A stretch of DNA of 64,000 nt from contig KZ538317.1 in the NCBI GenBank assembly GCA_000934665.2, forward strand, positions 1-64,000, given 5' to 3'. The position numbers and the translations under genes are program-made. This DNA comes from Catajapyx aquilonaris (lineage: Eukaryota). Every line of letters begins with the position of its first letter. Position 1 is the stretch's first letter. This document shows positions 2,230-56,991 of this stretch, in pieces. The notes beneath the pieces were generated by a model. It was not told the DNA's origin, searched no databases, and saw nothing but the letters and a program-made list of their open reading frames with translations.

Positions 2230-2272
2230 ATGTCTGACCGTGAGAGTGGAGATGACCAGCCTCAGGCGCAAA
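2230..2272 (+). CDS. Pur-alpha: Pur-alpha-family protein, first coding exon (MSDRESGDDQPQAQ)
   Basis: acatcATG start; 14 codons + 1 nt, then donor GTACGT (phase 1), matching the phase-1 acceptor at 49939. The MSDRES..DDQPQ start resembles arthropod Pur-alpha N-termini as I recall them. Confidence 0.8.
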
Positions 2273-4296
2273 GTACGTTTTCGTTTGGTGGCCCGGGAGA
2301 ATAAGAGTGTGTGTGAGAGTGAGTGAGTATGAGTGTGAGAGAAGGGTTGGGTTCAGAATAGGGGATTTCAATGGTAGTGTATGTGGTGGGGAGGGGGCCT
2401 TGCAACATAAGGGAATGTGAGGATGTGTGTGTGTGTTAGACCAGGGGCGTTTTCTCTGTGACTTTGGCCCTGGCCACGTAACCTGCCACTTTACTACTGC
2501 AGGCAGGCTGGATGGGACATGCTGCGCTGTTGCGGAGCATTTCTTGTCCGGTTTTCAGCCATGTTTTGCTTCTTAGCTGTCGCTGTCAAGTGTGCTGCTT
2601 GCAAGGGTTTCTTGTTTAGTTCTTAGCATGTTTGAACGGGATCGTTGCTTTGCCCCCTCAAATCTGTAACAGAATAGTGGTCGCGCAGTTGTTTTGAGCC
2701 GTAGTGTCACTTTGCAGAGAGGAGTCGGGGTGATGTGAAGGACATTTGGTGTGACGATCGGTGTGGTCCGTCGGTGATGTCCGACATGCGTAGTGACGAT
2801 TCACAGGATGAGGATAAAGCTGCAGGTATTGTTTGAAATGGGGTGGGTGAAGGGTGGTGGGATGTATGAAGTGAAGGTGTCTTGAATCACAGAGCATGGA
2901 TCAAATGAACATCGAGTATGCAGTGATCCCAAGTGGTGACAGTGCATTATGAAGCCTAGCTTATTTGTCACCCTGTAGTCACATTGGATCACCTGGTGTT
3001 TTAAATTATGACTGCTGTTCATGTGGAAGTAGCGTTTAGGTGTGATCCTCCCCATTTGTACTGTACCAATATGGTGGTTAGGGCTAGCCCTAGTGTCAAG
3101 GACCAGATGATGCCTTTGAAGAGGCGGTGTGGGGGTGGTGTTAGCCAGGTTGATGAAACAATGGCTGGCTGTGGCCCTAGCCTAGAGGTACAGGGCTCCG
3201 CTGCTTTGGCAGGTGGAGAGGGAGGGCATGAGAATGCATCTGCAATGCTAGTTGACCCATGCATCATTTAAACAATGCCCTGAAACCTTTCCTGCAATGC
3301 TGAAAGAGTGAGATTTGTAATGTGTGATGTTAATTCTTTCCTGGTTATTATCCAATGTAATTAGAGATACTTGTAAGTGATGGGAGTGTGACCATTAATG
3401 AATAGCCTCAAGTGTTGCTATTCCATATATGTTGTAGGTGTCGCAGAAGACAAAGTGAAGCATTACGTAATAGTTGATATTCACATTCAAATTCCATATT
3501 CTAAGCTACAGAGAATCCCAAGTACATTATTATTGTAAGATTGAGGGTACAAGTGAGTTAATACTGTGTGAGAAAATCAGTGACATGGAGGTTTAGTTTG
3601 TCCATCCATCATGTTGCACTTTGACATGTAATAAATGTTAGAATCTCGACATGGGAGAGTCGTGAAATTTTACCAGAAGTAATTAGAATATTATTTTATA
3701 GAACCATAGGCCCTGCATGTGAAGGCTGCAGGACTTGTTTCAAATAACTAGGTTGGCTATTAAGCACATTATTGTGCCAATCAATTCTGGTTGGGTAGGA
3801 AAATGAGCTAGTGGAAAATATGAAAATTAGTGAAATGAATTGTGTGGAAGGCCTGTAAGCTTATTCAAAGGGCACAATATAAATTTTTTTCTGTAGTGTA
3901 GCGAAGGTTGCAAGATGACTGAACTATTCATTTGAGTGATGAGGTTGGGAAGGGGATTTGCAACTAGTATTGAGTGATATTGTGACAAAATAGGAGCCTG
4001 AGAGTTTATAGCCAGGAGGCTCTGGTTTATCTTAATTCTAGTTTACAGTGATAAAGCATATTCCTAGTAGCCTGACAGGATTTGTTTATAATACTTCAAA
4101 GTAGTGTAGGGTAAGATAAGTCATCAGTGAAGCAATTTATGTACGTGGTGGTGGTTAAGGGGAAATTCATGGATACTTTTGTATGTCTCTTACAAATAGT
4201 AATTGGCTGAACTTTGTAAGACAGCCTGCCATCATAACTGTTAATTATGTGAAGAAGCACTGGCTTTATATTTGATAATTATTCCTAAATTAAGAT

Positions 4297-4550
4297 GGCA
4301 CGATGGTGTAGTGGTTATCACCACAGCCTTCCACCTCTGAGGTCCCGAGTTCGATCCCCGGGTCTGACAGAGGACACTTATGGAAAGAGTTTCGATGGGT
4401 TCTCTCCGTATTCGCGTTGCTTTTCTCGGGGCTCTCCCATTTCCTCCCACTATCAATACCCATCACATGACAGGCAGTCAATAAAGACAGTCTATTAAAA
4501 GATGATCCCCTAAGAGGCCCAAGGAGGCCTATAATGGGGTATCCATTATA
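4297..4550 (+). mobile_element. tRNA-derived SINE, family A
   Basis: A box TGGTGTAGTGG and B box GAGTTCGATCC. Body and tail (GATGATCCCCTAAGAGGCCCAAG) match the minus-strand copy at 36377-36624. Confidence 0.8.
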
Positions 4551-6410
4551 ACAAATTACTATGCAGGATGTCCCCAGTCTACCGGCGTTACGATACTGAA
4601 AATGACCATAAGTCAGATCCCTGAGGAACATAGCATAAAGATGCTGCTCCAACTTATCCCTTACGTCATGTGTGTTTGTTTACATGCACGGAAGAAGGTA
4701 GTTTCCCACTTATTTATTTAGTATACCGGTACAGTATTTATGTTGAACTTGGTGCGCAGAAGTGATTGAAAGTGAAGGAATAATTATAAATCACCCTGAT
4801 AGAGAGCTCGGGAGCCCGTTCGTAAGTACGGATACCGTAAGTAGGGACTTTCTGTATTTATTCCTATGTTAGACTTAGATATTGCTCGATACATTTACCG
4901 TCAACTGTATTGTAAGGCAAAAATTTTTGCTGATGGTAGGGTGTATGCAGTGTGATTCAGTTCAATGTCTGTAATTAGTGATTCTTGTGGTACAGAACAG
5001 GGGTTATCATATAAGGAATTCCAATAGTTAATTGAGAGGATATCTAGCCTAGTAATAATAGTAATGGTTAAAAATTATGCATCTTTGGGCTCTTAGGGGA
5101 TTCTCTGTTTAATGTTCAACTTGATTCATTAGCTGCACTCTGTGATGTATCCCGAGTTCCATAGGTTGAGTGGAACACATACTAAGACACAACCGTGCTT
5201 TTGTAGCAATTCCAGGCTGCTTCTGTAATTGGTCAAACTCAATCAGGATTTGTTTTAAATAGATTCTCAAAGTAGATGTGGTAGAAACTATAGCTCTAGA
5301 CAAGTGGGTGTTATGTTTGGGCCATGTATTTGGCTGCACAGAAATATTGCCAATATGGATGCATTGAATATTCAGCTGAAGGCAATGCTTTTCAAATACA
5401 ATTCTTCTGCAATGGCATCAGCATGTTACTTGTGGAAATGGGCAGTTTTTCACAAATGGTTGCTACCAACCTATGGCCCCAATTAGCTATTTCAGCACAT
5501 CTCAATGGTGTCTTCACCTCATCACCATACAGTAACATGAGCCACTACTTGAAAGCCCAAATTTTTCAGGCTTATTGTAATTCCTTGTGGATACAAATAC
5601 TTTGCTCTCAATTCTGACTGATGAGCAAGCCTGTCAGCCTGATATTAGTTACTGATATTTTTGATGGCATGGAAATGTAAGATAGAAACTGATTACTAAT
5701 AAGCAGCTTAGTTTTAAAAAAAACTACTAGCTAATGCAGATACTGCCACGGGATGGCATTGCACATGTGGTAATGATTTGCATATTAATTTATGATGAAG
5801 TAACATGGTATTCTGATAATTATGCAATGTGTAAAATTGTAAGGTATAATAATGACATATATTTTATTTCATTGTAATGTATGTTGTACACTTTAATGTA
5901 ATAAAGTATAGCTATAGTGTGATGGTATTGAGCTGGGGTCTTAAGAATTTTTGAGTAGGATATTTATTGGTTTTATTTGATGTGCAGTGTTGAAAACACT
6001 TGCAAGCTTCAAGTTGCAAATTGCATACAAAAATAATACTTAGTCCCATTTTAAAAATGTGATGCTGCAAAGTTATGGAAGTTTTTACTATGAGGCTTTT
6101 CTATTTCTGTACTGGAAATTCAGAAAATGGTATGTTATAATTACGCATACTTATGAAAGTTTTATAAATGCTCTATTATTGCACGAGCTTATGACACACA
6201 TCTTCCCGCCAGTTCCTGTTTAGCATGTTCATCTGGGGATGAATGAAAAATGAATGCATTGCAGTAGTTTTATCTGTGAGACATTTCGAATAACTCACGT
6301 GAAACCTCCTCTGTGTACATTGCATCAACCTGGTTACACCATCTGTGATGTCTTGCTTTGTTGTATGCCTCAGTGGCAGCTGCCTCTGCTTTTGAGATAC
6401 CTTTTAGATA

Positions 6411-7142
6411 CGTGGGTTGATGCAAATGTCATGGTGCATATTTTTAAAAATTCTAAGACAGTAACACATACAGAGATTACCTTTGCTGAGTTTTGAAGCT
6501 CCAATGATTACAATTAGATCTGATATATACACTGTAGATGTAGCCCATATCGCAAGGGGAGCCGGGAAACACTTTTGGAACTGTTGAAAGCTGCATGCAG
6601 GACATTTGACGATGGACAACACAGGAGCTTTCTTTCCAGTGTGGGACAAATCAGAGCACTATGCTTAGGACTCTGAAAGACTAAAAGGTCTCAGGAAGTT
6701 GGCATCCTCACTGGTTCCTCACCATCCCTTTGAGGTGCAAAAGTGCCACCATTTTGCCCTCCCTGGGAACTCGAATCGCTTTGAGGGCGATGTTTTTTTA
6801 AAATGGTTTGTGGTGATGGATGACATATGGCTCCAGTCATAGTGCTATGACTTGTCCCACACTCAAAAGCAAGCTCCTGTCTTGTCCATCAGCGAGTGTC
6901 CTGTATGCAGCATCCAACAGCTCCCAAGTACATCAGGCTTGGGCCTTTTTAGGGCAATAGTGAGGTGGGGGGTCACAATCCCCCTTTGTTTCCAGGCCCC
7001 CCTTGCTATATGAGCGACATCTATACATATCAGATCAAATATTGTAATCACCAGAGCTTCAAAACTCAGCAAAGGTCATCTCTGTATGTGTTACCATTTT
7101 AGAATATTAAAATACGTTCCATGATTTATTAATCAACCCACG
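6411..7142. mobile_element. Tc1/mariner-type non-autonomous element with ~160-bp diverged inverted arms
   Basis: TA|CGTGGGTTGAT ... ATCAACCCACG|TA. Arms share ACATACAGAGATTACCTTTGCTGAGTTTTGAAGCTC and its near reverse complement. Confidence 0.75.
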
Positions 7143-7955
7143 TATATAGCTTCCACTGTGAAGAATTGAAAAGAATGAGTGTTGGTATGGTGTGTGATGC
7201 TCTTTGATGAAAAGTAGTTCACCAGACCATAATAACTCTGTCTTATGGCAATCTGTGTCTCGAGATAATCACAGGACTTTTGAAGGATCGTGTGATTGAT
7301 TTTTTAAAGGCATGAAGTTGGTACAAAAGCAAAATTATGGTACTTTAAATCAGTAGAAATCAAGACCTGTTGCTCTTTGCTCTATTACCAAGGCATTTCA
7401 GTTATTATTTTTGATGGTTCAATTTTATCTTGGATACAAACCAGTCAGTATGTGTGTGAGAGAGAAAGAGAGAGAGTCCATCGAATGATCCCAGTACAAT
7501 ACATACTATGTAATTCTTTCATTAATTGCTGATAATTGTGCTTGACCAAACGTGGATTAAAGCAGGGTAGTGCTTGCTGCTCCCTGAAACTTGAGTTGTA
7601 GTGAGCATGAATGTCAGGGGGGAGGGAATTATTTTGCTGCTCAAGGGAAAAGGAACTGCTGCACTGATGTGGGTGAAAGTTTGTGCACCAGGAAGCCCAC
7701 TTTTCATATAGTTTGCCCAAAGTGGCCTGGGACCTACTACCATGATTAGTCCCATTGTGTGACCTTTGACCATTGCCACTGGCTTGAAAATTGTGCTGGG
7801 CATGCTTTTATGGAGCTCTGGCACTACCATTGGCCAGAGGTGCACCCATGGGTGCACCAACCTCCACTCCATTTCGAGGTTACATGGTCTGCATCACTTG
7901 CGTTGTTTCTTATACGCTGATCCGGTTGATTGACAGTCTGAATATATTATTCAGG

Positions 7956-8082
7956 TGCCCGATTGCACCAACGAAATTACCGATTCGATAGCTCCTAACA
8001 GATTGTTGGCACATATTAAAGGGGCTCCTAACGATCCATTAGGAGCTATCGGATCAGTAATTTCAGTTGGTGCAATCGAGCA
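7956..8082. mobile_element. PIF/Harbinger-like palindromic MITE, copy 1
   Basis: TIR TGCCCGATTGCACCAAC with 3-bp TSD AGG. Homologous to 29132 and 35929, in the opposite orientation. Confidence 0.8.
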
Positions 8083-8730
8083 AGGATGTTAACAAAAGTC
8101 ACAGATCTCCTTTCAAATATTCCAACCCTTCTCCAACACCACGACCTCCAGGTGAGAGTCTAGGGCCACCTAAGTCGGAGAGGTCTTTGGGATAGGAGGC
8201 AAGACTAAGAGAGATACCAGTCTTTCCTCTCTCCTTTTTCCTCTTTGTTTCTCTCACTGTCTGTCTCACCTTTGTGTCTTCATACAGCCAGATAGCCATA
8301 TTTGCTTTGGCTTCTTAATAAATCTAAACCAGGTGACTGGTGGTTTGCTTCTATCCATTTGTATATGTTGGCCATAGTGATAACCCAATGAGTAAGCTAC
8401 ACAGGGTGACCAGACTACTAGTGAGGGCCAATGAGTCACCCCTTTTGACCCATTGGCATTTAGGTCAATTGTTAGACCCACTTGTCAAGGTCTAGACCTC
8501 CTTGCAGTGGTTTCAAGGTATGCACCAATCTGATGTAATGTTACCGGCTAATATGCTTGATAACTTCAAATGTTGCTGATTCCTCTTCCAGGCCGGTNGG
8601 GGGGCATTTGTTTTTGCGAAGTTAGTGTTTGTCGTCTGAGATGGGCAGGGGTGGGGGGTGGGATGGGTTGTTCATAGGTTTATTTTTACAAGTTTTAATT
8701 TAGTTCATATTTTGGGTTAGCTTGTGGCTC

Positions 8731-8798
8731 CCATCATCGCTGACTACCCCTTATAGGGAAATGTCGTGATGGTGATTATGATGAAGATGAAGATGATG
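8731..8798 (+). repeat. 3' tail fragment of a retroposon with (GAT)n end
   Basis: GCTGACTACCCCTTATAGGGAAATGTCGTGATG... recurs at ~36790-36843, followed by (GAT)n. Confidence 0.55.
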
Positions 8799-9222
8799 AA
8801 CTTCAAATGTAGCTATTCCAATTTAAAAATATGGCACTTGTTAGAGCAAAACGATAGCTAACCACTGGGAAATTCAATTGGAAAGGAGGTATGCTTGATA
8901 TTAGTCTCCAATTATGTATTGGTACCATGCAAAATAGTTGAGCAGTTGAAATATATGTGGTTCAAGGATATCATCTGGATGGCTGCTTGATTCCATAAAT
9001 TGGACTGAAAGTAATTCTTCTTGGTGTAAATACATCTGAATTGTTCATTCATTGTTGATGAGACATGTACAGTACTATGTACAGTACGTGTGCCACGAAT
9101 ATATTGAGAGTGCAGGCATACTAAAATTGATACTGGAAGTCATGTGAGAACATTTGAAATGTGACCCACAGTTTATGAAAGGGTGAACAGAGTAATGAAT
9201 GCTTAAGAACATAAATTGAAGC

Positions 9223-9223
<1 letters not shown>

Positions 9224-9273
<50 letters not shown>

Positions 9274-9990
9274 TTGGTTTATTAACCCTCACCCCCTGCG
9301 AGGTTTATACATCAAATTGGGGGGAATCTCACGGAACTTATGGGATTTCGTAATTGCACTTAAGAGGAAGTACAGGTCTGTTGCATAGAAAGGAAGATTG
9401 GCTGTTAAGACAGTATAAAACCGGTTGGGCGGGGCTTTCGGAAATTTAGATAAATACTTCCTTCTAGGTGCGTACCCAAAGGAACAGTCGTATACCAGGT
9501 ATACAAATCCAAATTGGTCGGGGTATTACATAAAGAGCAGTTGTTTTCAAGATGTAATGGGATCCTGTAACCATTTATATATAAATTTTGAGAACAGTTA
9601 CGTAGATTAATAATGAGTCGTTTTGTAGGTAGTGGCAGAGGTGAGGGGAGATAATGCTCCAAGTGAAAATCATCTTTAATTTGTTTATATAGCACATGTG
9701 TGTTAGATTTTGCCAGACTTCGTCTTTTTCGATAGTTGCGTGTATTATCTTCTGAACTAAATCATTTATTAAGCCAGCCTAATTATTTGTTACTTTTTGT
9801 TGCCAACTTTTCCATGATATACCAGCCATAGCAAGAAGAGAATCACAGTTTTTCCTCCAAGGCATGTACGGATTTAGATTTGCATATTTGTAAGCTACGG
9901 CAATTATACTCTCATCAGCTTCTATAGATCTTAATTTCAATAGAAATTTAATGATCAAATAAAAATTTGTAATGTGCCTCGCATCAAGTT
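9224..9990 (-). mobile_element. Degenerate non-LTR retrotransposon (LINE) 3' fragment
   Basis: Minus-strand remnant ...HLEHYL..PLPTKRLIINLR...CSLCN..TNLDLY resembles a LINE ORF2 C-terminal zinc-knuckle region. It is followed by AATAAA and a (TTA)n tail (9224-9273). The 5' boundary is approximate. Confidence 0.6.
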
Positions 9991-10926
9991 ATTTTTTGTT
10001 ATTTTCTCAGAAGCAATGTAGAAGGAATTCTAAAGTAGGAATTGTTGATTGTAAGATATTTACCTTCCTTTACAGACCGTGTACTAAATGGCTGGTTCAA
10101 ATTGAAAATCAATGAGAGAGCATGTTGTGGTAGTCCCTGTGCCACAGGAAGCAAATTGTTGGGTTCAGGTTCACCTCTGAGTTTGATCCCCAGAGCAGAC
10201 AGATATTTGTAGCAAAATATTTGTAGCTTTTCTTTGTGTTCGCAGCACTGGTTTTCATGTTTCATCTCACATTTTACAATGTCCACCATTATTGAGGATA
10301 TTATATAATACAGGCAGGAATTTACAAGCAGATCTTAAAACCTTAAAGCCTGTCAATATATTCAAGGTTCATTACAGACATGTTTCAGCATCTCATCGTT
10401 ATTGCAACAGGAGGAGGAATCAATGTATTGCCTTGGTGTTATCCACATTTCAATCCGCCCAAATTATTTATTTTGCATATAACTTACATGTTGCACACCC
10501 ACTCACATGTGTTCTGTTCTTGTAAGAGCCAATTTCCTCATCACATGCCTGCCATCATAGAAAATGTGGAGCATGATATGTTTAACCTAGCATAATTTTC
10601 GTGTACCGGTAATTATTAATTACCATACTGCAAACAACTTTCATACTACCACTCTGGGGGGAGCTTGCACATGGCAAGACTACTTTTATGAAATGATTGA
10701 TTAGATTTTAATTGATTAGGAAGGAGCCAAAGTAACTGAATATCAATGAAATTGAATTTAGAAGAAAGTCCAAATACCTGCCTCCATGAAGACATGCCCA
10801 TGACATTTTTGTAGTGCCCCCTCTGTGACCTGTACATCTATAAATGCAAATACTGAAGAACAGTAATACGGTAGGGGTGCAGGAGTATGTCAGCAATATT
10901 ATTTGCAACAATTATTTGAGCATATA

Positions 10927-11666
10927 CAAGGTGGGGCAAAAGTCATAGGTGGTTTTAAACTACGCAGCATAGCATATGTAACGAATGATTATATATATAT
11001 TTTTAATTACACTACACAGAGAAAGATATGCAATTTATGGATCAAGGTCCAAAAAAGTCACTGCTTGAAAGCAGCACTGGATATAATTATGTCCACCTTT
11101 GCGGGCAACACATATTCCTGCAAACGCCGGACGAAACCCTTCAGACCGCATTCCAGCATGTCCAGGGGGAATGTTTCTCACGGAGTGTCTTATCTGATCC
11201 TTAAGATCAGCCAATGACTGAGGACGTGTGGCGAACACCAAACTCTTTAGGTACCCTCACAAGAAGAAGTCCGGGGTGGTCAAATCCGGCGACCGCGACG
11301 GCCAAGGAATGCTCCCAAATCTCGAAATGACCCTCCCAGGAAACACTTGACTTTTAATTTGTTCGGTGTTCGCCACACGTCCTCAGTCATTGGCTGATCT
11401 TACGGATCAGATAAGACACTCCGTGAGAAACATTCCCCTGGACATGCTGGAGTGTGTTCTGAAGGGTTTCGTCCGGCGTTTGGAGGAATATGTGTTGCCC
11501 GCAAAGGTGGACATCTATCCGGTGTTGTTTTCAAGAAGTGACTTTTTTGTACCTTGATCCATAAATGGCATATCTTTCCCTGTGTAGTGTAATTTTTTTG
11601 AAATATAATCGTTACTTACGCCATGCTGCGTCGTTTAAACCCGCCCATGACTTTTGCCCCACCTTG
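10927..11666. mobile_element. Fold-back element made of two inverted 3' ends of a Tc1/mariner transposon
   Basis: TIR CAAGGTGGGGCAAAAGTCAT with TA on the left. The minus strand encodes FPGRVISRFGSIPWPSRSPDLTTPDFFL*GYLKSLVFATRPQSLADLKDQIR (transposase C-terminus, SPDL motif). The same C-terminal peptide occurs on + at 11366-11557. Confidence 0.85.
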
Positions 11667-11762
11667 CATTTTAATCTGGAATAAGCCAGAAACTTCATGT
11701 CCCCTCAAGTGTGTACAGTGTTCAAGTTGTATCACAACTAACTTTCTACATTTTATTTTCAG

Positions 11763-11810
11763 GTAAGTCATTTGAACTTGAAGAAAATGGCTGTTGGACG
11801 GGCCAAATGG
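11763..11810 (+). other. Candidate recursive splice site with 48-nt cryptic/cassette exon
   Basis: Branch-like CTAAC (11738-11742), pyrimidine tract, CAG|GTAAGT at 11762/11763, second donor G|GTGAGC at 11811. The exon is stop-free in phase 1 (x-KSFELEENGCWTGQM-G). Confidence 0.6.
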
Positions 11811-13516
11811 GTGAGCATATGACTTTTTTACTCAGTGGGACCATAGAATCCAAGCTATTATTTTTAAAAAGTGGCATGGAGACCTCTTATGATGCATCAA
11901 AACCAAAATTAGATTGTATTCTCTGCCTCCCACTATTTGTGTTGTGGCTTGCCAGGTGCTATGCATGCAAAAAATTCCGCATTAATGAGAGCAAAATGTG
12001 TAATTAACACCTTGAAAAATGTATAATTCACGTAGTAGGGGTGGAATCCGTTGGAGAGTAAGTTACATGTTGCAATAATTTATGGCTGGTAGGACAAGCG
12101 TGGGGCATGCTAAAATTGTATGAAGGGCGCTTAGATGTTAGAAGGAAGAAAATGTTCTGTCATTTAGGTATGTCAAGCCATTAAAAGTGGACTTTTTATT
12201 TATGAATACGCAAAATTTGGGCAGGAAGACGACGATAATAACATGAATGTGGTGAATGATGATCGATTCTTTGACATAATATATAACGGTTGAGAAAGTC
12301 ACACATTGGAGTTTTTTTTGTTGTTGTAAAACCCTAGGAACACTTAAAACGATTGTGCAACTGGGAAATTTTGGCTTGCCACGTTATATGTTGACTTGAC
12401 TGTACATTAATTTCATGGCGAGAGTGACTGGAATGAAATAAATTTGTACACCTTGAAATCTAGAGCCATGAACCTTGATGATCAGTGCCTTCACGAACCT
12501 TGTGTAAAGAAGCCATTTATCATTGATTGTAATGTATTGTAGATCGTCTCCTTCTTTCTCGCCCTAGAAGAATGATGAGTGCATTTCGGAGCTGCATCAT
12601 TTTGTCACACTGCACGCAAAGCTATTTGTTCCCGCACGGAATTGTGATGCTATAGTGTTGACAACATTTGTTCCGTTGCTGGAATTCTTGAGCTTGAATA
12701 GGACTGTACTCTAATGGAAACGAGCAATCTTTGCGTGGAGAATGAAATTTCGTAGAGGACTTCCATGGCGGGAAACGAGAGGGTGCGCAAGCACGTAGGA
12801 CCACCTTACCGAAATTCCTCCTTTTGCCCCTACCTATACATGTGACTTTAATTGGCCTTTTGCCTTGGCTGTGACCGCAACTTCCGGCCAGATTGGGGCA
12901 AAGTGGCGCATATGCAGGCGGCCACAGGGCCACTGACCTTCCCCTTGGAAAATGGCCAGTATGGTTGGGGAAGGTGGGTGGGGAGGTGTCGAGGGTGTGA
13001 TTTTTGGATTCCGGTACGACAGAATGGAAGTTCCTGCGCTGTTATTAGGCCCTCAACTTTCCAACCCCAATACCCCAGGACCAGCGAGAAAAAAAGGAGG
13101 GGCCAAAAAAAAAAAGTTACAATAAATACCTTGCCATTGGCGATTTGGCTGAGCAGTGATGCATTTTCTGGCCCAAGTGCAACCGGTCTGGCTGCACTTG
13201 CGGAATTTGGGGCCTGTTCGACAGGGAAGTTGGACTTCTATTTACATAACGTTTTATTTTTTTACATCATTTTTTCGTGCAGGCTCTGGAGCATTCCAAT
13301 GAATGGAATGGCTGGAATTTATACCGCAGAGGATGTGCGGAAAATATCGAAGTGTGAGCGGAATACTGTATATGGAGTGTTTTTAAAAATTAGTTTCGAA
13401 TCCGATGGAATGAGCTTTCGAATGCAAACATCAGGTGCAGTACATGTGGCCTGTTCATAGATTCCAAAGTTTTATTTTTGCTCTGCTGACTTTTTCTGAA
13501 TGGTGCGGGGGGGGGN

Positions 13517-32328: not shown

Positions 32329-32455
32329 ATGGAAGGGGAAGAGACCCACCTCTTGGGAGAGGGAGGATATGGAGGGTCGGAAGATGGGGGAATCCAAGAC
32401 GAGGGTGCAGAAGGGCACTGGCCGATGGAACGGATGCAATACTGGTATCCTCCAG
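32329..32455 (+). CDS. Candidate alternative first coding exon of the Pur gene (MEGEETHLLGEGGYGGSEDGGIQDEGAEGHWPMERMQYWYPP)
   Basis: gtgATGG start, 42 codons + 1 nt, donor CAG|GTGGGT in phase 1. The peptide is acidic and Gly-rich. Confidence 0.45.
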
Positions 32456-49756: not shown

Positions 49757-49938
49757 AGTGACTAATGTAAACCAGAATTTAACACTACTTTTATGGGGTA
49801 TTGACATCCAAGGCATTGCATGTATTTGACACAGTGTATGGTCATTTTGCTCTCCTTAATCGACTAGGTGTTGTGATTTTGTGCTGCTGTATTTGTGCTC
49901 TGTCTCAGGATAAAAATGAGTGTTTCCTTTCTCTCCAG

Positions 49939-50054
49939 GTCAACCCCAGCAGGGGGAGCAGGAGCTGGCCACCAAAATGCTCCAGATCCAGTCCAAAAGG
50001 TTCTATCTGGACGTCAAGCAGAATAGAAGAGGAAGGTTTATTAAAGTAGCTGAA
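49939..50054 (+). CDS. Pur-alpha: Pur-alpha-family protein, shared exon (start of PUR repeat I)
   Basis: TTTCCTTTCTCTCCAG acceptor; [38 protein letters not shown]; donor GTGAGT. Confidence 0.97.
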
Positions 50055-50192: not shown

Positions 50193-50295
50193 ATTGGTGC
50201 TGATGGACGACGTAGCCAAATATTCTTAGCGCTATCTACAGCAGCAGAATTTAGGGATCACCTTTCAACATTTAGTGATTTTTATGCATCACTAG
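50193..50295 (+). CDS. Pur-alpha: Pur-alpha-family protein, exon (end of PUR repeat I)
   Basis: TTTTCTTTACAG acceptor; [35 protein letters not shown]; donor GTGAGT, phase 1. Confidence 0.97.
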
Positions 50296-51275
50296 GTGAG
50301 TGTTCAGTAGTAATTAACATAGTTCTGTTGATATCAGAATCCATCAAAAGTCGTGTTTACAAGGTCTCAAGAGTGGCGTTGTCAAGTAAATTATATATTG
50401 TTCAGCATGAGTGAGAAGTCAGTGGACAAATGGGGTGTGGGAATTGGCTTCTCGCTCTTGCTAGGACTTTTTCACAAGCTCGTGAACACACCTTGGGCAA
50501 ATTGTGTCAATAATATTGTTTGTTTGTTTTTCTCTGGCATAGAGAAACTCCATTTTAAACGTAATTTTGTTGCTAGATATTTGAAGTGCAACTGTAGGTT
50601 TTTTGTTACTATTTGAAATGTGACATAGGCGTCACTGCTATTCACTTGGCATTATTTCAGCCAATAAGGAGATCCCACACCAGGCAGAAGGGTTTTGGAT
50701 GGACTAATTTAGGTTTTGTGAGTAGCAGAGGTACCAATGTTAAATTTACAGTAGGACTTTGCAGCTATGTGTTGACTATTTGCTGCATTGCAACATTACC
50801 TGATTTATGCAGCTTGAAAAGGAAGTTATTTTATTGCTGTACACTTACAAATTATTTTGGGCGTTCTTTATGGCTTGCTTCTGGTGCCACAGCCCCAGCT
50901 AGGGAATTCATCTTATAAATGTTTATTTTGAATAAAGGCCCTGGTAGGATCAGTGAATCCAGTGTCCCAGAAAGACCTGGAAGAAAAGTGGAGGAATTTA
51001 TTGCAGTTAAAGCCTTCTTGCTTGAGGGAGAGCATTGTCACTGCTGCCATGAATTACTGCTCATTGGCTGATGTAGAGTGGAATGCCAGTGTTATTTGTC
51101 AGACAAAAAGGCTTCAACTGTACCAGCATTGTGGCACTGAAGCGTATTAGTGTACCGGTATATGTCAAGAGGATCCATATGTACACTAATGGCGGCCATT
51201 CCTAATCATTTGCAATGTCCAGGTTTTTTTTTGCCACCTTGTACAATTTTACAGAATTTCTTATCAAAACAAGTA

Positions 51276-51952
51276 CCGTATTGCCTCTGATATTGCGGCA
51301 TGCTGGTGTAGGCGAGGTCAACCAGTTTTTAAAAATGCTTGGTCTGGTGGCTATACCGGCATGCCTGTATAAGGCGAGGTTTTCACATAATTTACATTAT
51401 CCTTTCCGAACTTGACATTTGCCTGAAAAGCACAATTCACGTAAAGGCTATCAAAAAGGCACATTTTCTGGCAATAAGCTCTATTTAAACAGTATGTTGA
51501 AGCAGGGGGTTCCCCTGTCAAAGCTTGCTGACGATGACATTGGTCACACAATCTACATTTTTTATATGCACTGTGCAACAGAAGTTGCATATTCTCACCA
51601 GAGCTGTAACTAGCTGTTCATACGCCCTGGGCAAGAAATTATGATGTGTGCCCCCCCCCCCCCCCNNNNNNNNNNNNNNNNNNNNNNNNNNNNNNNNNNN
51701 NNNNNNNNNNNNNGGGTGCCCCTGTTGCTCCTGCCTAGTTACGGCTCTGATTCTCGCAGCTTGTACACTCGCCCATTTTCATTGTAACATTATTTTAGAA
51801 CGGAACCAGATGCATTCCAAAAGATTTGGCAACGATCAAAATTACGGAAATCTACCTCGGTTATTGCAGCATGCCGGCCACCCCTGGGTTATACCAGCAT
51901 GCTGGTCGAACTCGTTTTATACCGGCGTGCCGCAATATGAGAGGTAATACGG
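51276..51952. mobile_element. pogo/Tc1-mariner-type non-autonomous element spanning an assembly gap
   Basis: TA|CCGTATTGCCTCTGATATTGCGGCA ... TGCCGCAATATGAGAGGTAATACGG|TA. Confidence 0.7.
51666..51713. other. Assembly gap (48 N)
   Basis: Run of N after a poly-C tract. Confidence 0.99.
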
Positions 51953-55526: not shown

Positions 55527-55628
55527 CATGTGTGAAAAACTGGGGCAAAGCATTATGGCGTTAATGATGCAGTACACAAAAGAATTGTAACAACCAATCC
55601 TCCCCCCAAAACCTTTATAACCTTGCAG

Positions 55629-55747
55629 GTCCACCCAACCCTGAGAATGTTCCTGAAGATGGAAAGCTAAAATCCGAGATGATGATCAAAGACAACCGTC
55701 GTTATTATCTAGACCTCAAGGAAAACTCACGTGGTCGATTTCTGAGG
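55629..55747 (+). CDS. Pur-alpha: Pur-alpha-family protein, exon (start of PUR repeat II)
   Basis: CCTTGCAG acceptor, phase 1; [39 protein letters not shown]; donor GTAGGT. Confidence 0.97.
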
Positions 55748-55814
55748 GTAGGTGGTCGATTTTTAGCAACACCCCTCCGTGGGCTTGCTAACATTGGATT
55801 TGCATCTAATGCAG

Positions 55815-56042
55815 GTGTCACAGACGATAACACGTGGAGGGCCCCGGTCCCAGATTGCCATCCCTGCCCAGGGGATGATCGAGTTCCGGGATGCCCTCAC
55901 TGACCTCCTGGAGGAATTTGGGACTGATGATGGGGGGTTTAAGGGTGAGCTGCCTGAGGGGAGGCATATGCGGGTGGAAAACAAGAACTTCTACTTTGAC
56001 ATAGGCCAGAACAATAGGGGGATCTATATGCGCATTTCGGAG
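55815..56042 (+). CDS. Pur-alpha: Pur-alpha-family protein, exon (repeat II end, repeat III start)
   Basis: After a 67-nt intron: [36 protein letters not shown]...[21 protein letters not shown]; donor GTGAGT. Confidence 0.97.
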
Positions 56043-56856
56043 GTGAGTCTGATTTTTCATGTAATTTTATATTGCACTGTTCTCAAGATATCAAATGTAG
56101 GTGGTCAGAGAGAGAAATCTGGAGACATGCCGTGCTTAAGGTGCCATGTGCAAAAGGTCAGGTTCAAGGCAGTAACCGCACTATTTTGATCCAATTCATT
56201 ATTAAAGGATCACATGCGTGCACTTGGTGTAGCTGGAATTAGGCTCTTAACAGGACTCTGCCCTGACGCCCCACTTATTTTCTGCTTATATTCCCTGCAA
56301 ATTTCTATGGCAGGGTCAGTATTAATCAGTATTGGGACAGATGAAGAATCGAGGGCATAAAACGAATCAAGGGCATAAAAAGAAAAGGGCTGCAGTAGTT
56401 CATTATAAGGATGACATTTTAAAGTTGTGCCAATACATGCAATTGTTGTGTCAGTAATGAGAAAAGGATTAATTCTGACAGGTTCTGTGCCTTCACTCGA
56501 GACACACTTGGCACATGGCGTTGGTGTTTCAAAGTGGTTTTCGCATTCAATTTTAAGGAACTGTCCGAATTGCAGAGAGGAAATGTGATGTGTCATGGAC
56601 ACGCCTTACTTCTCTTTTGTCACATCAAATTCAGTAGATTTAAGGTGCTATCATTAGATCTGTTATACACTGTGAACCAAGCTCTTGATGAGTATGTCAT
56701 GGTCATGGTCTGTCCATGGTAATGTCACATTCATTTTTCCTTTGTTATGAAATAGAGAACCCCTTTCCATTACAAGTTCAAGGGTGATGAGACCTAGGAC
56801 ATCTCCCCAAGTGAGTTGAGGGCTACCACACGCTTTGAAATGCATAACCTCCACAG

Positions 56857-56991
56857 GTGAAAACGAACTTCCGGACGGCAATCACCATTCCAGAAAAGTC
56901 CTGGGCGCGTTTTCGTGACATCTTTGCTGACTATGTAGAGAAGATGAAAGAGGGTGAGAAGGCAGGGACTGAAGCAAGTACTAGCAAATGA
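56857..56991 (+). CDS. Pur-alpha: Pur-alpha-family protein, terminal coding exon
   Basis: CCTCCACAG acceptor; VKTNFRTAITIPEKSWARFRDIFADYVEKMKEGEKAGTEASTSK, TGA at 56989-56991. Confidence 0.93.
   Translation: MKTNFRTAITIPEKSWARFRDIFADYVEKMKEGEKAGTEASTSK

Follow-up and report, generated by a model that had tools for sequence, protein, structure and literature searches.

A candidate recursive splice site in the 47.7-kb first intron of a Pur gene of Catajapyx aquilonaris

Recursive splicing, the stepwise removal of a long intron, has its experimental demonstrations mainly in Drosophila and in a small number of vertebrate genes. In insects other than Drosophila, a strand bias of motifs is the evidence given in PMC2773006. 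A 64,000-nt stretch of DNA from Catajapyx aquilonaris (contig KZ538317.1, positions 1 to 64,000; here called the window) raises the question of whether a Pur gene uses the same mechanism. A preliminary description of this DNA had noted an acceptor that runs directly into a donor within a very long intron, with a second donor 48 nt later. It had proposed that the intron is removed in steps and that competition between the two donors may add 16 residues near the N-terminus of Pur. Our answer is tentative. With a probability of roughly 0.45, the site is a plausible recursive splice site, namely a Drosophila-type intronic ratchet point followed by a short cryptic exon (RS-exon) in intron 1 of an insect-type Pur gene. 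Optional inclusion of that exon is unsupported.

The Pur gene and its long first intron

Searches by tblastn with insect Pur proteins placed a six-exon gene of the Pur-alpha/beta type on the + strand of the window (Table 1). The joined exons amount to 753 nt and encode 250 amino acids followed by a single terminal stop. The core of the protein shares about 95% identity with Pur from a stick insect (P0014) and from a damselfly (P0035). Intron 1 spans 2273-49938 on the + strand. At 47,666 nt between the mapped exons 1 and 2, it agrees with the length of about 47.7 kb given earlier. The acceptor of exon 2, at 49938, is good.

Table 1. Features of the Pur gene and of the candidate ratchet site in the window; a slash marks a splice junction
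Feature	Position	Strand	Details
Pur exon 1	2230-2272	+	43 nt, phase 1; start codon, 14 full codons and one extra base; donor AAA/GTACGT at 2273; tblastn and six-exon model
Proposed recursive segment 1	2273-11762	+	9,490 nt; predicted
Palindromic (foldback) repeat	10924-11669		about 750 bp; arms about 320 nt, 88% complementary overall
CTAAC, branch-point-like	11738-11742	+	candidate branch A at 11741 (21 nt 5' of the junction); branch role putative
Polypyrimidine tract and acceptor CAG, TTTCTACATTTTATTTTCAG	11743-11762	+	AG at 11761-11762
Candidate ratchet-point donor GTAAGT	11763-11768	+	would be regenerated as AAA/GTAAGT upon ligation to exon 1
Candidate 48-nt cryptic RS-exon	11763-11810	+	phase 1-1, stop-free, GAAGAA inside
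RS-exon donor GTGAGC	11811-11816	+	poorer consensus match than GTAAGT
Proposed recursive segment 2	11763-49938	+	38,176 nt; predicted
Alternative internal first exon, MERMQYWYPPG	32425-32455	+	donor GTGGGT, phase 1
Pur exon 2 (Pur repeat I)	49939-50054	+	preceded by CAG; final acceptor; tblastn and six-exon model
Pur exon 3	50193-50297	+	tblastn
Pur exon 4	55628-55750	+	tblastn
Pur exon 5	55815-56045	+	tblastn
Pur exon 6	56857-56991	+	tblastn

Intron 1 also contains an alternative first exon, with similar first exons, ...IQYWYPEG, in Pur isoforms from Hymenoptera and a louse. The gene accordingly has two promoters, one distal and one internal, as had been assumed in the preliminary description. 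Given this resemblance, such an arrangement looks old among insects. The tblastn mapping also bears out the earlier statement that the candidate site (11763) lies 5' of the internal first exon. Transcripts begun at the internal exon would bypass the site.

Upstream of the distal first exon, AAGATGGCGGC is found at 2041-2051, about 180 nt 5' of the Pur start codon. We take it to resemble a core-promoter motif of the YY1 type, in which case transcription would be expected to start near 2030-2045. The window contains single Ns at 1586, 8598, 13516, 30616, and 33882, the last four of them inside intron 1, and a run of 48 Ns at 51666-51713. If the Ns are assembly gaps, the length and content of intron 1 could be underestimated, including the missing copy of a cassette exon known from other insects (see below).

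Anatomy of the candidate ratchet site

The signals noted earlier are all present and exact to the base: CTAAC, the pyrimidine tract, AG/GTAAGT, and the second donor 48 nt on (Table 1). Pyrimidines occupy 14 of the 17 positions at 11743-11759, and no AG dinucleotide occurs from 11726 to 11760. The T residues at 11757 and 11758 provide the TT at -5/-6 that 196 of the 197 fly ratchet points in preprint 10.1101/006163 share. The sequence at the site, ...ttttattttcag/gtaagt, fits the ratchet-point consensus (y)nncag/gtaagt as quoted in PMC2773006. The search pattern YYYYNCAGGTAAGT gave no match because it does not allow the A that the site carries at the outermost of these positions; this is a fault of the pattern.

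As outlined in PMC8605326, ratchet points in fly depend on a cryptic RS-exon, about 50 nt long, that ends in a donor of its own, as a rule the weaker of the two. The RS-exon is recognized, but the ratchet donor prevails and the exon is skipped. Loss of the ratchet donor switches splicing completely to inclusion of the RS-exon in fly Bx and kuz (PMC8605326). At the Pur site, GTAAGT is the stronger of the two donors, as judged by consensus match alone. Every published sequence feature of fly ratchet points is present here, including TT at -5/-6 and the cryptic exon of about 50 nt. Together with the sense strand and the very long intron, they fit the published definition and uphold the earlier view that the anatomy is of the ratchet type. 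Most fly introns longer than 40 kb have recursive sites, which tend to lie at midpoints, by the account in PMC6110457. The Pur site departs from this tendency, which is not a requirement. It lies 9,490 nt into the 47,666-nt intron (20%) and leaves a second segment of 38 kb.

The site can be compared with Drosophila intronic ratchet points that have cryptic RS-exons, for example those of kuz, Bx, and Ubx. Shared with these are the juxtaposed acceptor and donor, (y)nncag/gtaagt with TT at -5/-6, the sense orientation, an intron of more than 40 kb, and a donor of poorer consensus about 50 nt 3'. Unlike them, the Pur site is not from a drosophilid, is a candidate from its sequence only, and is single, well short of the midpoint at 20% of the intron. 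Its 48-nt unit is in frame, whereas the cryptic RS-exons of fly are described as generally out of frame (PMC8605326).

If the site acts as a ratchet point, the 48-nt unit would be recognized through exon definition in distal-promoter transcripts, with the acceptor (CTAAC, the T-rich tract, and CAG) and the 3' donor GTGAGC as the signals. Exon 1, which ends at 2272, would be ligated to 11763 and 9.5 kb would be removed. The ligation would recreate AAA/GTAAGT, predicted to out-compete the weaker GTGAGC. The recreated donor would then be spliced to exon 2 at 49939, so that the 48 nt leave with the other 38.2 kb of the intron. The mature mRNA would be identical to the product of one-step splicing, and inclusion of the 48 nt (16 residues) would be a minor by-product at most.

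Vertebrate RS-exons (Sibley 2015 and Blazquez 2018, as summarized in PMC8605326 and PMC6224609) share this logic: exon definition comes first, and the regenerated donor then competes with that of the RS-exon. Most of them are annotated exons kept by the exon junction complex, whereas the Pur unit would be fully intronic and normally skipped, as in the fly type.

A nearly perfect foldback repeat lies upstream of the site. Its arms are 87-97% complementary in four blocks around a center of 117 nt, and it ends (11669) 69 nt 5' of CTAAC (11738), outside the splice signals. We found no further copy of it in the window. In the pre-mRNA, the repeat could form a long hairpin just 5' of the candidate acceptor. 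To our eye its ORFs were reminiscent of the tail of a mariner-type transposase, an identity that found no support in Pfam, with none of the five ORFs reaching the family cut-off.

The closeness of this repeat would suit an origin of the signals as splice-like sequence from a mobile element. Alternatively, they could belong to an overlapping transcript that has no annotation and mark one of its exons, in line with an open frame of 110 codons that runs across the site from stop to stop (11675-12007) and contains the 48 nt, which are open in the frame of exon 1. Comparable frames are common nearby, however, as six of at least 110 codons overlap 10500-13000. The DNA at 11670-12100 has no second copy within the window. 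Neither a Pfam family nor a protein relative was found for the site, and no Rfam family was found anywhere in the window. We consider it quite improbable that the signals belong to something else of either kind.

The 48-nt unit and the optional cassette of insect Pur

The 48 nt might also be retained in the mRNA. They had been called stop-free and phase-preserving (1-1) in the Pur frame, and both the sequence and the ORF check confirmed this. As an expressed alternative exon, they would be present in a real share of the mRNAs and add 16 residues at the N-terminus of Pur. Such an exon could be an expressed RS-exon like Ubx mI/mII. It could also be an ordinary cassette that only happens to begin with six bases resembling a donor. 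The open, frame-preserving length speaks for expression, as does GAAGAA within the unit, which we take to resemble a purine-rich splicing enhancer. By our estimate, though, a 48-nt unit would be in frame and open by chance about 1 time in 7 (1/3 x ~0.4), and the open frame therefore adds little. Like the Ubx microexons mI and mII (51 nt), the unit is short, preserves the frame, starts with a donor consensus, and lies in a very long intron. The Ubx microexons are ultraconserved and demonstrably included, while the Pur unit is known as a candidate from sequence alone. In fly, cryptic RS-exons are normally skipped in full where the ratchet donor is the stronger (PMC8605326), which argues against expression of the Pur unit.

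Other insects do have an optional in-frame cassette at exactly the exon-1 junction. This cassette, S/N-K-Y...SDFDSG, is found in Pur of cockroach, thrips, stick insect, and leafhopper and in fly-type Pur, and is absent in other isoforms. That it is a separate exon follows from a thrips isoform in which another first exon precedes the cassette. Its optional presence at the exon-1 junction implies that an insertion at this point of the protein is tolerated. Two motif searches found no recognizable copy of the S-K-Y cassette in intron 1 of the window; the position is thus vacant, which would leave room for the 48 nt as an expressed exon. The unit resembles the cassette in its junction after exon 1, its phase, its length (16 versus 17-21 residues), and its potentially optional use. 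There is no sequence similarity past S-K, however, and those two residues are dictated by GTAAG. The proposal that the unit is a diverged counterpart of the cassette is accordingly unsupported.

Also not supported is the idea that the S-K-Y cassette is itself an RS-exon starting with GTAAGTA. Only one of 40 metagenome loci, the mRNA-like L001, carries the cassette, which starts there with AAT AAA TAC, not with GTAAGT. Hence the conserved cassette is not an RS-exon in general. Metagenome loci that extend up to about 3 kb 5' of exon 2 did not show it. The 40 loci encode Pur relatives, and their 69 nucleotide matches to the window all lie at exons. Loci L021, L022, L024, and L033-L039 are intron-containing Pur fragments with a protein 87-97% identical to cockroach Pur, which suggests DNA from host insects within the metagenomes.

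A protein search with the open frame over the 48 nt gave 54 candidates, none of which scored E <= 10, and among longer proteins none with the 16-residue peptide was found. This blank is uninformative because the Pur protein of this species is not in the collection searched. For the last exon there was no identical match either, and the matches covering at least 96% of the query were 64-80% identical.

Read-through of the exon-1 donor (2273-2305) would give S-T-F-S-F-G-G-P-G-E-stop, loosely reminiscent of the S-K-Y-S-Q-G-G with which the optional cassette of thrips Pur begins. The likeness is probably due to chance, because the thrips cassette is a separate exon.

Taken with the evidence on both sides, expression of the 48 nt in a real share of the mRNAs is unlikely. 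It is very unlikely that they are an expressed, frame-preserving RS-exon outside Diptera and at the same time a diverged positional counterpart of the S-K-Y...SDFDSG cassette. If this were true, recursive splicing would ratchet out the 47.7-kb intron and also set the frequency of the 16-residue addition by donor competition. The addition would be limited to distal-promoter transcripts.

Chance expectation, base rates, and wider meaning

A ratchet point and a chance juxtaposition differ in how often such a motif is to be expected. As the null we used 1000 dinucleotide-preserving shuffles of Pur intron 1, for which mean counts are given. The core 8-mer AGGTAAGT alone is unremarkable and occurs at the chance rate. 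There are two copies on both strands of the window versus 2.07 expected, and one in sense intron 1 versus 0.83 in the shuffles. In intron 1 the composite signal, unlike the core 8-mer, is beyond chance. With at least 14 of 17 upstream pyrimidines, AGGTAAGT is expected 0.007 times per shuffled intron, and with at least 13 of 17, 0.015 times. For AGGTRAGT with at least 13 of 17 pyrimidines the expectation is 0.028, and it is 0.004 if GTRAG also follows 25-100 nt 3'. The strictest class plus a downstream donor was found in none of the 1000 shuffles. The composite is thus expected 0.007-0.03 times per intron (at most 0.004 with the downstream donor), a gap of about 30-100-fold from chance, but these figures are optimistic because the motif thresholds were chosen after the site was seen. 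In the loosest motif classes the site is not remarkable. AGGTRAG with at least 13 of 17 pyrimidines is expected 0.15 times in the shuffles, and under independence the margins of the 208 sense AGGT sites predict 19 x 8 / 208 = 0.73 sites through both loose cut-offs.

Within the real intron, 1.1% of 2911 AG dinucleotides have a comparable tract. AGGTRAG occurs eight times in sense, and only the candidate has both a good tract and a near second donor. The four antisense AGGTRAG sites have 3-8 of 17 pyrimidines and none qualifies. Among the 208 sense AGGT sites, the candidate alone combines a tract of at least 12 of 17 with a donor matching GTAAGT at 5 or more of 6 positions; no second candidate of similar quality was found among them.

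Published densities provide a base rate. Table 2 of PMC2773006 lists motifs resembling ratchet points per 100 kb of introns longer than 50 kb, on the sense versus the complement strand. The densities are 2.20 versus 0.10 in fly, 1.03 versus 0 in mosquito, 0.81 versus 0.10 in beetle, 0.48 versus 0.12 in bee, and about 0.1 versus about 0.1 in vertebrates. As sense exceeds complement, most sense motifs in such insects exceed chance, and in genomes like those of bee or beetle at least three quarters of the sense-strand motifs are above chance on these tabulated values. The complement-strand density, 0.07-0.12 per 100 kb across the animals in the table, implies 0.03-0.06 chance sites per intron of this size, in agreement with the shuffles. 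In the locust, an insect with a large genome, the ratchet-point ratio is vertebrate-like and unlike that of other insects, as stated in PMC3896762. The long, repeat-bearing intron 1 may belong to a similarly large, locust-like genome. Since a bee- or beetle-like enrichment and a locust-like ratio are both possible, our estimate is bracketed between them.

These numbers bear on the possibility that AGGTAAGT, of which about one copy is expected in the intron, has come to lie behind a T-rich stretch by chance and is either unused or a source of rare splicing noise. We regard this as a real, if doubtful, possibility. It draws on the chance rate of the 8-mer, on the loose motif classes that are not significant, and on the post hoc thresholds for a pattern that the preliminary description had been scanning for. 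Large genomes would hold many chance composites at the complement density, and the enrichment seen in other insects is absent in the locust. Against it, chance predicts just 0.007-0.03 strict composites per intron. Moreover, features that were not needed for the first pick-up of the site also fit: TT at -5/-6, CTAAC 21 nt 5', a donor at +48, and a first donor stronger than the second.

A full-text literature search pairing "recursive splicing" with "Pur-alpha" found no paper. Pur-alpha was likewise not found in the supplements of PMC6110457 and PMC8605326; the main table of PMC6110457 is without gene symbols ("kuz" is absent from it too), which leaves this blank uninformative for fly Pur-alpha.

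Recursive splicing at the Pur site is supported as a hypothesis by the anatomy of the site, its place, and the expectation for the composite signal. As it stands, the site is a further motif-based candidate of a well-described kind, in line with the fly model throughout. The gene around it, which has two promoters, encodes a conserved regulator that binds nucleic acids. A recursive site verified in an insect outside Diptera would establish a broader role for the mechanism in long introns. If verified, the Pur intron would also be a simple case in which the transcripts of one promoter alone need a ratchet.
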